Source: Chlamydiota bacterium
Lineage (GTDB): Bacteria; Chlamydiota; Chlamydiia; Chlamydiales; RGXB01
NCBI GenBank assembly: GCA_947494155.1
Contig: CANLTW010000018.1
Coordinates: 1-22,873, forward strand
Reading direction: 5' to 3'
Length of the DNA: 22,873 nt
Positions within the stretch are counted from its first letter, which is position 1. Each line of letters starts with the position of its first letter. The notes under the pieces were generated by a model, which saw only the letters and a program-made list of their open reading frames with translations, made no database searches and was not told the DNA's origin. Shown here piece by piece: positions 19,877 through 22,873 of the stretch. Both the position numbers and the translations under genes were made by a program.

Positions 19877-20194
19877 ATGAAATTAACTAATTTATTACCC
19901 CTTTTGGCCTGGGACACGGATCGTCATCAGGGTGTGAGCGAAAAGGATACTCGTTTACTGAATATTTTTAAGCGAAGCGTTTGGATTTCTGTTGCCCTGT
20001 CGGTAATCGCAGAAGCTGCGCTGTCACTTCTGTATCCAGGTTCCTACTATTCAAGACCGAACACGAGATCAGCAAAAATTTTGGAAACGATCTCCTCATT
20101 TGCATCTCGCGCATTCCTACCTATGAGCTTTTTTTCAGTTCTACAATCCGCAAGAGTCTACTCAATCGTTAAAGAAGCAAAAAAGTCTTGCTAG
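19877..20194 (+). CDS. Small hypothetical membrane protein (about 105 aa)
   Basis: Part of track ORF 19760-20194. The in-frame ATG 19877 follows AAAGGA and avoids overlap with hemW. Two hydrophobic segments. Confidence 0.5.
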   Translation: MKLTNLLPLLAWDTDRHQGVSEKDTRLLNIFKRSVWISVALSVIAEAALSLLYPGSYYSRPNTRSAKILETISSFASRAFLPMSFFSVLQSARVYSIVKEAKKSC

Positions 20195-20362: not shown

Positions 20363-20390
20363 TTGGCTAGATGTTTTTCGGGCCTATAAT
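20363..20390 (+). promoter_or_regulatory. Possible sigma70-type promoter upstream of peptide remnant A
   Basis: TTGGCT (20363-20368), a 16-nt spacer, TATAAT (20385-20390), followed by AAAGGT. Confidence 0.35.
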
Positions 20391-20403
20391 AAAGGTAAAT
20401 CCT

Positions 20404-20530
20404 ATAAAAAAACCAAAGCCAGCAAAACTGTTTCAAAGAAAACTAAAGCCAAGAACAAAAAGGAAAATGAAAAATTAATCAGGGGCGTTGCAATTTTCCT
20501 AATAGTTACCCACAAAGGGGGCATTTTAAT
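20404..20530 (+). pseudogene. Degenerate Lys-rich-leader / double-glycine peptide gene, copy A
   Basis: Reads AT[G missing] KKTKASKTVSKKTKAKNKKENEKLIRG. Restoring one G at about 20487 gives GG-CNFPNSYPQRGHF, which aligns with copy D (K..K.SK...KK..AK.K......[IV][RK]GG.N[FY]...GH). The end coordinate is approximate. Confidence 0.45.
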
Positions 20531-20653
20531 ATCTTCTCGTGGCTTTATTATCAACAAAAAACGGCTTAGACCCCGTTATTGACACGTATTCTCCTCCTTT
20601 TACTTTTGGTGATTTTTTTTATCTGAACTATTTTTTTTTATCTTTTTCATCAT
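20526..20653 (-). pseudogene. Frameshifted Lys-rich-leader / double-glycine peptide gene, copy B
   Basis: As read it is MMKKIKKNSSDKKNHQK* (20653-20600). One extra A in the A8 run (A9 in copy C) gives MMKKIKKNSSDKKKSPKVKGG-EYVSITGSKPFFVDNKATRRY*. Confidence 0.5.
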
Positions 20654-20926
20654 AAAACCTTATTTTAATTATCTATTTTTCTGCTGCTTCTTTTTTTGGT
20701 TTCGATTGTTATCAATACATATCATCCGCAATAAGTGGAATTACACGACTCACAACGTGCAAAAGCCGAATCTTCTCGACAGGAAATGCCCGATGCTCCC
20801 CCGACAGCTTTCTATTTTTTTTGATACATATTTCCCGTTGAACCATCATAGCAACCGCCTCCTTTTAGTTTTGCTGATTTTTTTTTATCTTTAATATTTT
20901 TTTTGCCTTTTTTCTTCATAAAACCT
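20593..20926. repeat. Imperfect direct repeat of about 68 bp (20593-20660 and 20858-20926)
   Basis: Both copies read CCTCCTTTTA-x-TTTTG-x-TGA(T8/T9)ATCT...CATAAAACCT, with a period of about 266 bp. The repeat covers the RBS and leader of peptide copies B and C. Confidence 0.8.
20812..20919 (-). CDS. Lys-rich-leader / double-glycine micro-peptide, copy C (35 aa)
   Basis: Manual translation MKKKGKKNIKDKKKSAKLKGG-GCYDGSTGNMYQKK*, with AGGT upstream of the ATG. It is below the ORF-track cutoff. Confidence 0.55.
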   Translation of the reverse strand: MKKKGKKNIKDKKKSAKLKGGGCYDGSTGNMYQKK

Positions 20927-21314
20927 ACTCGCAGTTTTTTTGCTGCTCTTTTGTGCGCTTTTTTGTTTTCCTACCTCGTTGGTAAATTACAAATACTAAA
21001 TTATTATATTATTATCCAGCTTTAGGTAATAAACATTGAAATTGAAAGAGTTACGTTTCTACTACAAAGGGGAAATTTAGAGGGCTATTAGCCTGTGAAA
21101 AACTTTTAAAGACCATTTCATCAGTCTTTTTTCATCTCTAAAGACAATCTGTTTCACCCGGTTCCAACATAAAATGCACCTACTGCTCAATCAACAACAT
21201 TTTCGATTGCTTTACATGCTTAAAAGTCTACTAGCTCTTTAAATTACATGGGCTTAAACGCTAAAATTGACAAAAAAAACTATAATGTTATTTAGAAAAA
21301 ATAAGGAGTAATTC

Positions 21315-21461
21315 GTGGTCAAAAAGCATCCAAAGAGCAGTAAATCAACTGCAAAAAAACAGCTAGCTAAGAGCAAAACGATAAGCAAAGAGGTTACTGT
21401 AAAAGGTGGGGGAAATTATACTCGTAACTGTACCAATGGCACTTACGGTGGGCATCCTTGA
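21315..21461 (+). CDS. Lys-rich-leader / double-glycine micro-peptide, copy D (48 aa)
   Basis: Manual translation MVKKHPKSSKSTAKKQLAKSKTISKEVTVKGG-GNYTRNCTNGTYGGHP*. GTG start with a strong RBS TAAGGAG at 21302-21308 and TATAAT at 21281-21286. Confidence 0.62.
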   Translation: MVKKHPKSSKSTAKKQLAKSKTISKEVTVKGGGNYTRNCTNGTYGGHP

Positions 21462-21522
21462 AATGGTGTATAAGGACTCGCAGCAAAAAAAAGGTGCATG
21501 AAACGGGGCACTTAAACTTATA

Positions 21523-21669
21523 CTAGTAGTCCCATCTATGGCTATTATCATAACAATTTTTACCTGCAGTTTCCCACCCCCCAGCCCCATATAATTTTTT
21601 TCTCCCATTCGATTTAGTTCTAGCCTCTAAGGATTGATCTTTTTTGCTTGGTTTGGAAGCCTTCTTCAT
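21523..21669 (-). CDS. Lys-rich-leader / GA-GG micro-peptide, copy E (48 aa)
   Basis: Manual translation MKKASKPSKKDQSLEARTKSNGRKKLYGA-GGWETAGKNCYDNSHRWDY*. Purine-rich AGGGGAAAGGT precedes the ATG. It converges on copy D and shares CYD with copy C. Confidence 0.55.
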   Translation of the reverse strand: MKKASKPSKKDQSLEARTKSNGRKKLYGAGGWETAGKNCYDNSHRWDY

Positions 21670-21787: not shown

Positions 21788-22612
21788 CTAGGTGAGAAAG
21801 AGGTCCCGATGGGAAAGGAGACGCGTATAGAGCAGATCAAACAGTATTGTTTCGGGAAAGCTAGCGCTTTTAGCGAGCATCTCCAGCTCTAGTAAAAGGG
21901 GGAGAAGGCCTAAAAAATAGTCCATGCCCAGGGCGTCTCGCTCTTTTTTCTGAGCTAAAAGATCTTTTTTTCTGAAAGGGGGAATAGGAGCTGCGGGCTC
22001 GATTTCAAAACTAAAGAGGTTATAATAGACCTCCTGACGCAATTTTGAGATAAAACCGAGCATGTCTAGAGGGGACGGGCGCAAGCTGTGTTGCGGATTT
22101 AAAAGCATATGCCTCGCTTTTTCCCAATCGTTTGGCCCTAACTCATAAAGGTGATGTTTTTCCAGGTCTTCAAGGGTGATTTGAGATTTAGAGTGGGTCA
22201 AAAGAATCTGTTCTACATGACGCAAAATACATAGACCAAACCCTTCCGATAGACGAAACAGGCGATCAAAAGCCTCTTTCTGTAATGTTTTTTTCTGCTT
22301 TTGGCAAACATGATCGATCCACTGAAAGATCCTTTTCTGCCGTTCCCACGGTTTCTCTGCTGAAAAATTATGGCATTCTACCGAGGGGATACTTTTTAAA
22401 CTCTTAGAGAAAAAAAGTGTGATTGGTACAGAAGAAAATTGCAAAAGATCCCAATCCATTTTTTTAGGCAAAGAGTCAATGCGCGCGTACAAGGGATCGT
22501 TTTCAGCAAAAAATGTGGGATTTTCCACTTGGGCGTACAGCGCTTCAAGACTTGGGAGCTCTTTTGCCCTGGGACAAAAAAGCTCCACGAAAAGGGGCAT
22601 ATCCTCATCCAT
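21788..22612 (-). CDS. DNA polymerase III delta subunit-like (HolA / CT047-like) protein
   Basis: LYAQVENPTFFA resembles the delta-subunit clamp-binding SLF motif region. Also PWERQKRIFQWI, a helical lid ending in ITLEDLE, and C-terminal LELEMLAKS. The start was moved from track position 22672 to in-frame ATG 22612. The family assignment is from recollection. Confidence 0.55.
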   Translation of the reverse strand: MDEDMPLFVELFCPRAKELPSLEALYAQVENPTFFAENDPLYARIDSLPKKMDWDLLQFSSVPITLFFSKSLKSIPSVECHNFSAEKPWERQKRIFQWIDHVCQKQKKTLQKEAFDRLFRLSEGFGLCILRHVEQILLTHSKSQITLEDLEKHHLYELGPNDWEKARHMLLNPQHSLRPSPLDMLGFISKLRQEVYYNLFSFEIEPAAPIPPFRKKDLLAQKKERDALGMDYFLGLLPLLLELEMLAKSASFPETILFDLLYTRLLSHRDLFLT

Positions 22613-22622
22613 ATGATCAAAG

Positions 22623-22873
22623 ATGATAGCCCTGATCAAGATAGCTTTTGCTTTTGTTGTCACAATCACCAATATACAACAAAACAGTGTTAACAGGAAA
22701 ACAAACTTCGCAACCTATTCTGCTTACTTTTACTTTTTAAGCTTGGCGCTGCTGGTTGCCTTGGCCTCTATGGGGATTGAGAAGGGGACGATCAAAGATG
22801 ATGTACTTCAAAAGGCGATGGAGATCCCTCAAATCCAGAAGTATGTAGATAAAGCAATTGAACGGATTATTTT
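22623..22873 (+). CDS. Partial membrane protein, possibly YihY/BrkB family (runs off the window end)
   Basis: Open frame from ATG 22623 to the window end: MIALIKIAFAFVV...FATYSAYFYFLSLALLVALASMGIEKG..., loosely resembling the first TM region of YihY proteins. Confidence 0.4.
   Translation, partial: MIALIKIAFAFVVTITNIQQNSVNRKTNFATYSAYFYFLSLALLVALASMGIEKGTIKDDVLQKAMEIPQIQKYVDKAIERII

Follow-up and report, generated by a model that had tools for sequence, protein, structure and literature searches.

The stretch of DNA considered here in full, called the window in what follows, is a complete 22,873-bp contig (C18) of a chlamydial genome (GenBank assembly GCA_947494155.1, labelled G000), which amounts to 1.41 Mb in 24 contigs, with 42% GC and 97.6% completeness. 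It contains a spacer of 1.6 kb, with 35% GC against the 42% of the genome, where we find an island of micro-open reading frames (micro-ORFs) built on a common plan: a lysine-rich N-terminal half, a glycine-glycine or glycine-alanine (GG/GA) motif and a variable C-terminal half. We call these halves leader and core, and place a slash at the boundary between them. Strains were compared using a sister genome of the same genus (G006, the alignment of which to the window is approximately 95% identical) and contigs of runs X2, X3, X4 and X20. The modules of the island are the following:

20404-20582, + strand: A, decayed member; lysine-rich leader-like stretch at 20404-20487; the frame as it stands runs to TGA 20580-20582
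20526-20653, - strand: B, frameshifted member in two frames, with the break at an A8 run (T8 on the + strand, 20613-20620)
20722-20811, - strand: C', second module in the same frame past the TAG codon of C, KAVGG/ASGISCREDSAFARCESCNSTYCG, with four cysteines and a stop at 20722-20724
20812-20919, - strand: C, 35-aa ORF with an ATG start, MKKKGKKNIKDKKKSAKLKGG/GCYDGSTGNMYQKK, ending at TAG 20812-20814
21315-21461, + strand: D, 48-aa ORF with a GTG start, (M)VKKHPKSSKSTAKKQLAKSKTISKEVTVKGG/GNYTRNCTNGTYGGHP, with AAGGAG 7 nt upstream
21523-21669, - strand: E, 48-aa ORF with an ATG start, MKKASKPSKKDQSLEARTKSNGRKKLYGA/GGWETAGKNCYDNSHRWDY, with a purine-rich stretch upstream that resembles a ribosome-binding site (RBS)

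Read from its sequence, the island is a strain-variable assembly of six modules: open C, D and E, frameshifted B, C' lying past a nonsense codon, and decayed A. The original prediction, made on the letters of the window, had seen five related micro-ORFs at this place; C, D and E are indeed intact as it read them, while B is split by one base and A is a remnant devoid of a start. There is no ATG, GTG or TTG at the head of A, either in the window or in G006, and the repaired reading GG/CNFP... that had been proposed as a gene requires a frameshift in both genomes; we therefore treat A as a remnant and do not retain that reading. A promoter-like site, TTGGCT-16-TATAAT, lies near A at 20363-20390, and a promoter/terminator scan of the island did not rise above shuffles (7 against 4.5±2.1, and 3 against 1.4±1.2). 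The repair proposed for B met with a better fate. With one added base, B reads MMKKIKKNSSDKKKSPKVKGG/EYVSITGSKPFFVDNKATRRY. G006 has this additional base, and so do contigs of two other freshwater runs, X3 and X4 (an extra T after 20612), while the X2 contig lacks it, as does the window. The frame being intact in these three relatives, B is a real gene that is off in the present strain.

The case of C is more intricate. It had been taken for a complete short peptide, and the frame is open as read, but it ends at a TAG codon that is glutamine in an otherwise identical 65-aa database protein (P0008) and lysine in G006. A contig of X2, an independent sample, is identical to the window across 20416-21551, TAG included, so that this codon is not a one-off assembly error. 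As these alleles compare, C belongs to a longer gene that had been missed, that of a 65-aa precursor, and is here truncated by a nonsense codon. In P0008, the frame reads through C into C', making a precursor with two GG sites, which may have two cores or result from the fusion of two genes. The C' core of G006, ALGYSCRDEASVSKRYESCNPTYCG, keeps all four cysteines despite substitutions at 12 of 82 sites and a 3-nt indel. In other strains C' is altered again: X4 has a 3-nt insertion after 20773, and one contig swaps 75 nt of the core for 40 unrelated letters.

D and E vary too. The ortholog of D is open in G006, with two changes in the leader and a C-terminal extension ...GGHHGKGL, and a contig of X3 varies within D at 21444-21456. 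E stands for a subfamily of its own, the leader head of which, together with its upstream DNA, is duplicated on contigs C22 and C14 (DNA paralogs at 81% and 79% identity); three more leaders of this subfamily lie on contig C149 of G006, two ending in GA and one in GG. In G006, E itself (locus L013, last 260 nt) has lost its frame through a 7-nt deletion adjoining a G-run, and contigs of three runs diverge from the window at the leader of E, at 21612-21614. Breaks in the family sit in homopolymer runs of lysine (AAA) and glycine (GGG) codons, as illustrated by A8 versus A9 in B and by the G-run of E; they could reflect slip-strand on/off variation or mere decay. At the syntenic site of G005, another genome of the genus, there is a 200-bp spacer without any such ORF.

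The family in its genome and beyond

The modules of the island belong to a family of approximately 16 intact members: three on the window's own contig, five on contig C17, one each on C7 and C8, and two each on C10, C13 and C14. About seven further copies are degenerate or partial, namely A and B in the window and others on C22 (where the ATG is lost), C10 (31391-31480), C17 (26238-26357), C1 and at the end of C5. Members begin with MKK (or MQK or MMKK). When 15 intact members are aligned, M1, K2, K3 and the GG column are common to them; the motif at positions -2/-1 is GG or GA, its column being invariant or nearly so in 15 of 15, with E as a GA case. The contrast between the two halves is stark: leaders of 20-32 aa have 40.5% lysine, 3.4% aspartate plus glutamate and no cysteine (0%), while cores of 11-29 aa have 6.1% lysine, 6.4% cysteine and 15.5% serine/threonine. 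At least one cysteine is found in 13 of the 15 cores and at least two in six.

It must be asked whether such frames could arise by chance in DNA rich in A. Our relaxed pattern demanded an ATG or GTG start, two lysines among residues 2-4, a leader of 18-33 aa with at least 30% lysine plus arginine and ending in G-G/A, and a core of 8-35 aa. The region has three matches, while among 2000 first-order Markov shuffles of the same region 1995 had none and five had one. Across the genome, a strict pattern gave 16 matches, 12 of them preceded by an RBS-like motif (one of the 16 is a double count at an MM start, one an overlapping alternative frame and one a doubtful ORF on C12), against none or one, never with an RBS, in each of 30 local-composition shuffles. 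A looser pattern is less clean, with 19 matches in the genome against 1-8 in ten shuffles, and a hidden Markov model built from C, D and E only separates weakly (four matches of at least 12 bits outside the contig, against none or one per shuffle in six shuffles). The micro-ORFs are not chance ORFs, and the composition-matched control that had been suggested with the original prediction leaves real matches far above shuffled ones, in the region as in the genome.

The family has a narrow distribution. It is found in 3 of the 151 genomes of the order, all of one genus. Within the genus, profile matches number 14-16 in the source genome, 2-5 in G006 and one in G002; inspection of G006 by eye brings at least nine lysine-rich members, three of them on contig C149. 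No family match appears at E<=0.1 in G001, G003, G004 and G005, and the 15-member profile has no match at E<=0.01 in the 148 other genomes of the order, which double as a negative control made of AT-rich chlamydial DNA. The profile search has thus added members in this genome and in its genus and none further away, and the 'chlamydial lineage' of the original prediction was too broad. Among 1.84 billion representative proteins there are six matches, all from the family's own lineage; among 5.8 billion clusters, ten related proteins, none with a functional name and two labelled only 'hypothetical protein'. Absence from protein databases is weak evidence, because gene finders often skip small ORFs. 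C, D, E and the 15 members fall into no family of Pfam or NCBIfam (relevant NCBIfam models, E<=10), a search of the ESM Atlas with P0008 gave no usable match, and scans of metagenome contigs with D, or with a 105-aa ORF that flanks the island, returned nothing or one distant locus (38% identity). A search of full-text literature, supplements aside, found nothing on lysine-rich double-glycine leaders or on such peptides in chlamydiae; the accessible portions of papers on chlamydial biosynthetic clusters (PMC9666466, PMC13229535) mention only generic 'RiPP-like' or proteusin clusters. Within the libraries and the literature searched, the family is undescribed, as had been surmised.

Comparison with the sister genome tells us where change accumulates. 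Between the window and G006, cores differ at 42 of 295 sites (14%), leaders at 5 of 300 (1.7%) and spacers at 22 of 646 (3.4%). Core by core, the differences are 7/41 in A, 5/68 in B, 12/82 in C', 2/51 in D and 16/53 in E, while the leaders of A and B differ at 2/84 and 0/62. For cores versus spacers the odds ratio is 4.7 (Fisher p=5.6e-9, a value that overstates the contrast because sites hit by recombination are not independent). Core indels in the strain contigs are in frame (3 nt). Database variants behave likewise: the 20-aa leader of P0001 is identical to that of P0009, yet their cores differ greatly, and P0003 and P0005, read by eye, differ from a peptide of C10 at three and six core positions. 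That cores diverge beyond the neutral level suggests diversifying selection, an exchange of cassettes, or the two together. Mosaic members also exist: C17_b and C17_c have the same upstream DNA and first nine residues, while C17_a and C17_b have the same last twelve leader residues. Judged by these patterns, the micro-ORFs are a real, lineage-restricted and fast-diversifying family of small-peptide genes, which agrees with the picture first drawn of a conserved basic leader, a GG/GA boundary and a variable core.

The family's largest cluster, at C17:22759-26357 (locus L005), near a contig end, holds five intact genes and a degenerate one; its leaders are mosaic, and the ribosome-binding region is the same in two tandem copies. 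Two members on C13 (28057-28326; locus L008 5058-5327, - strand) lie directly downstream, on the same strand, of genes for an MFS transporter and a TolC-like outer-membrane protein, and the leader of one C13 member recurs, with an internal TAG, at C10:31391-31480. Around most members lie unrelated accessory genes (ankyrin, F-box, patatin, CesT, an MFS-OEP efflux operon) rather than genes for modification enzymes. In the 150 nt upstream of 16 members, no clear common motif is seen beyond A-runs.

Candidate export and modification machinery

A search for C39, HlyD and LanM genes, again suggested at the outset, was productive. Two operons encode an HlyD adaptor, an ABC transporter with a C39 peptidase and a second ABC protein of ~995 aa (C5:58122-64405 and C8:45482-51756). 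For both, the best NCBIfam matches are those of the NHLP export trio TIGR03794/TIGR03796/TIGR03797, with five scores slightly below the curated cut-offs (833 and 808 against 853.3, 691 and 700 against 709.4, 145 against 156.2) and one above (164 against 156.2). From end to end, the C8 transporter can be aligned with PCAT1 (4ry2; 306 bits), its Cys, His and Asp standing opposite the matching PCAT1 residues. Both transporters keep the peptidase Gln, Cys, His and Asp, which are invariant across 21 chlamydial C39 domains, and TolC-like partners are present in the genome. The C8 operon is headed by a member of the family; in operon order it comprises:

C8, first gene: predicted precursor, MKKQPKNPGKKEQKSSDKNREKKITGG/GGGFTTPGSKP, with a core devoid of cysteine
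C8:53425-54465 (locus L003 10426-11466), - strand: genes for lineage-specific proteins of 156 aa and 187 aa, between the precursor and the dehydratase gene
C8:51818-53425: DUF4135 protein of 535 aa, the dehydratase part only of LanM, matching positions 10-271 of the 932-position LanM model as well as DUF4135
C8:45482-51756: HlyD, C39-ABC and second ABC protein (ABC2)

No LanC-like cyclase (PF05147) was found in the genome. The 156-aa protein faintly matches a peroxidase-related (AhpD-like) model (E=1.9e-4); the 187-aa protein, with three close relatives in the 5.8 billion clusters, weakly resembles the 156-aa one (E=0.17). In G006, the stretch expected to hold the operon-linked precursor falls between two contigs. 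Serine/threonine and cysteine, the residues from which thioether rings could form, occur together in 13 of 15 cores, the operon-linked core being devoid of cysteine. DUF4135 proteins are present in 26 of the 151 genomes of the order, often as stand-alone proteins of ~500-550 aa with no cyclase, and a few genomes of the order have full-length LanM-sized ORFs of 960-1011 aa.

What would these exporters handle? The genome has no NHLP (TIGR03793) or Nif11 (TIGR03798) leader at E<=0.1, the TIGR03793 search being weak in that its control matched no control genome; TIGR01847 matches twice, below threshold, within ORFs of 283 and 321 aa, but nowhere in the peptides. Since no leader of these types was found, the family peptides are the only candidate substrates seen. 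Furthermore, within the genus, the C8-type transporter and its DUF4135 companion are limited to G000 and G006, the very two in which family members abound, a co-occurrence that points to the C8 operon as the cognate system.

Probable precursors of exported peptides, and what else they might be

Taken together, we may understand the family as precursors that would be cleaved after GG/GA and exported by an NHLP-type system, a reading to which we give a probability of about 0.6; they are probably double-glycine precursor peptides with a new variant of the leader. In the scenario that we favour, the lysine-rich, hydrophobic-poor leader would be removed after GG/GA and the core exported by the three-gene system of HlyD adaptor, C39-peptidase ABC transporter and second ABC protein, most likely that of the C8 operon, with its family member at the head and its cyclase-less LanM-type dehydratase. 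Most cores would probably be released unmodified or disulfide-bonded, and some may be dehydrated at serine or threonine. By point change, cassette replacement and leader-to-leader recombination, they would diversify much faster than neutral spacer, a pace that fits peptides of conflict or recognition, directed against bacteria sharing the host cell or against the host itself. The analysis demonstrates the genes, the family with its non-random character, the unequal divergence of leaders and cores, and a complete set of export genes; translation, cleavage site, export route, modification and biological role are all things that we infer from the letters. The processing in trans that had been proposed at first becomes plausible with two C39 exporters accompanied by HlyD, and because one of their operons is headed by a family member and encodes a LanM-type dehydratase; the leaders, mostly devoid of hydrophobic residues at -7 and -12, do not speak for it.

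Known systems offer several parallels. According to the accessible part of the report of Haft et al. (2010; PMC2887384), Nif11/NHLP precursors form many paralogs, some far from enzymes, with the same export trio, with LanM in cyanobacteria and with uncharacteristically long leaders. The present family likewise has many paralogous precursors, some of them far from enzymes, with a conserved leader, a hypervariable core and a GG boundary; its HlyD/peptidase-ABC/ABC2 cluster is a best NCBIfam match, and a LanM-family enzyme adjoins the transporter. Its leader is nevertheless different, at 20-32 aa and ~40% lysine, matching neither TIGR03793 nor TIGR03798, and the LanM relative is a 535-aa dehydratase part with no LanC-like cyclase found in the genome. 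Short precursors with a GG/GA motif and a small, often cysteine-paired core also recall class II bacteriocins, microcins and competence pheromones (a class described in the accessible part of PMC6363468). As in the double-glycine systems PCAT1, ComA and LahT, a C39-ABC transporter with Gln, Cys, His and Asp comes with HlyD and TolC-like partners; in contrast to those systems, the leaders contain almost no acidic and few hydrophobic residues, with no TIGR01847 match, and most genes adjoin neither a transporter nor an immunity gene. Class II lanthipeptides, finally, are evoked by the DUF4135/LanM N-terminal protein in an operon headed by a family member and by cores with serine/threonine and cysteine, but there is no cyclase domain or LanC gene, the operon core has no cysteine, and no lanthipeptide leader model matches.

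Several facts weigh against export as we picture it, and they should be listed together. In the accessible text on the C39 domain LahT150 (PMC6363468), hydrophobic leader residues at -4, -7 and -12, which dock into a groove of the C39 domain, are needed, and an acidic or basic residue at -4 or -7 abolishes processing. Of 15 family leaders, nine are hydrophobic at -4, two at -7 and three at -12, so that recognition by C39 cannot be assumed: either these C39 domains read another signal or the peptides are not their substrates. Only one of the ~16 intact genes adjoins a transporter. The joint presence of family and C8 operon in G000 and G006 counts as one evolutionary event, through shared ancestry. 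G001 and G003 have the C5-type transporter alone, with no family member at E<=0.1, and at least that operon type must therefore serve something else; G002, 89% complete, has one family member and no C39 transporter that we could find. Of 120 genomes of the order, 19 encode NHLP-type C39-ABC exporters, and 20 transporter neighbourhoods (L056-L075; 17 in other genera, three in the same genus) contain no convincing lysine-rich GG peptide, the six loose matches looking like chance ORFs. Eight DUF4135 neighbourhoods (L076-L083), nearly all from other chlamydial genera, contain no convincing one either. RNA gives a single hint: a 190-nt metatranscriptome contig of run X20, at a depth of 3 and with DNA carry-over possible, is identical to 20388-20577, the A region, and a second contig, of 118 nt, touches 20870-20904 with five mismatches and probably comes from a paralog; these contigs give neither transcript ends nor strand. 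To this must be added the caution attached to the Fisher test, and the breaks in A, B and C in the window and in E in G006, several broken copies suggesting that part of the family may be decaying. A complex prediction for the C39 domain of C8 (21-row alignment) with the operon peptide (15-row) gave no answer (score 0.02, mark 0.32) and is not evidence either way.

Some of these facts would be accounted for if the peptides, while real, stayed uncleaved at GG. The polycationic half would then do the work, for instance by attaching to nucleic acid, ribosomes or membranes or by bringing the peptide into a target cell, with GG as a hinge to a variable tail, and secretion, if any, would follow another route, such as type III. 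The lack of the hydrophobic -7 and -12 residues needed by the studied C39 domain would cease to be a difficulty, as would the member kept by G002, where no C39 transporter was found; most genes, far from transporters, indeed sit beside ankyrin, F-box, patatin and CesT genes typical of host-directed factors. We nonetheless think this unlikely, for the composition switches sharply at GG (lysine from 40.5% to 6.1%, cysteine from 0% to 6.4%), the lysine-rich half is conserved and the tail hypervariable, which is the usual pattern of leader and core, one member heads a peptidase-transporter operon, and the Hc1 histone-like model matches one ordinary gene and no family peptide. Decay is a distinctly improbable explanation of the whole. 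The loci would be the graveyard of a once-active system, kept by slow deletion, their core divergence resulting from relaxed constraint and gene conversion, and it is true that A lacks a start in two genomes, that B is frameshifted in the window and in X2, that C is cut by TAG and E frameshifted in G006, that the C22 copy has lost its ATG and copies on C10 and C17 are degenerate, and that G005 has no island at the syntenic site. Yet the divergence of cores, at 14%, is about four times that of spacers, at 3.4%, which relaxed constraint alone cannot explain; the four cysteines of C' survive 12 substitutions and an in-frame indel; ~16 copies are open, with MKK starts, an RBS-like motif accompanying 12 of the 16 strict matches; and B is intact in G006, X3 and X4, as are the export operons.

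The most sceptical view holds that there are no genes at all, the ORFs arising as a side effect of repeated, A-rich sequence between genes, such as a promoter or untranslated-region module or a small mobile repeat. Lysine codons are rich in A, the island has 35% GC in a genome at 42%, the leader head of E is duplicated along with its upstream DNA, and the looser pattern does give 1-8 matches in shuffled genomes. This non-coding interpretation is disfavoured to the point of being very hard to believe, as the strict pattern matches 16 times against 0-1 in shuffles, and the region three times against at most one; moreover, an MKK start, the position of GG and a stop 11-29 codons further on are common to copies of otherwise dissimilar DNA, core indels are in frame, and the 148 other genomes of the order have no profile match.

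Returning to cleaved and exported precursors, a bolder version may be considered. Prochlorosin-type systems employ one promiscuous LanM. One might imagine here a prochlorosin-like combinatorial library set on a new class of RiPP or bacteriocin leader, short, probably disordered and polycationic, read by charge rather than through a hydrophobic helix by a dedicated C39 transporter and perhaps a cyclase-less LanM, with poly-A and poly-G runs as on/off switches and with swapping of core cassettes. The host is a reduced-genome chlamydia, unlike the cyanobacterium of prochlorosins, and no diversified arsenal of secreted peptides would have been described before in an obligate intracellular symbiont. 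In its entirety, this construction is doubtful. Should the peptides be cleaved and exported, a chlamydia of 1.4 Mb would spend some twenty loci on rapidly diversifying secreted peptides, and, if true, this would mean active conflict or signalling inside the host cell. A working polylysine leader would call into question the accepted view of C39 peptidases as readers of a hydrophobic helix that precedes GG; it would give genome mining a wider search space, and might be put to use as a new secretion tag. The case also illustrates the small-gene content that is overlooked by gene callers.

Surroundings of the island

The genome carries three TLC nucleotide-transporter genes, one Hc1 histone-like gene, a CesT chaperone gene, and genes for ankyrin and F-box proteins, which fit a chlamydial genome. 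The island itself is bordered as follows:

Flank on one side: a HemN-like radical-SAM gene and a conserved 105-aa ORF
19877-20194, + strand: this 105-aa ORF, with no Pfam family; 98.7% identical in G006, with 69% DNA identity in G005
21788-22672, - strand: 294-aa ORF on the other flank, called 'holA-like' in the original prediction

Because it is conserved in G006 and recognizable in G005, the 105-aa ORF is probably a real small gene. A Pfam search with the 294-aa ORF gave no match at E<=0.001; the 3' end of this ORF, together with the leader region of E, is duplicated on contig C22 at 81% identity.

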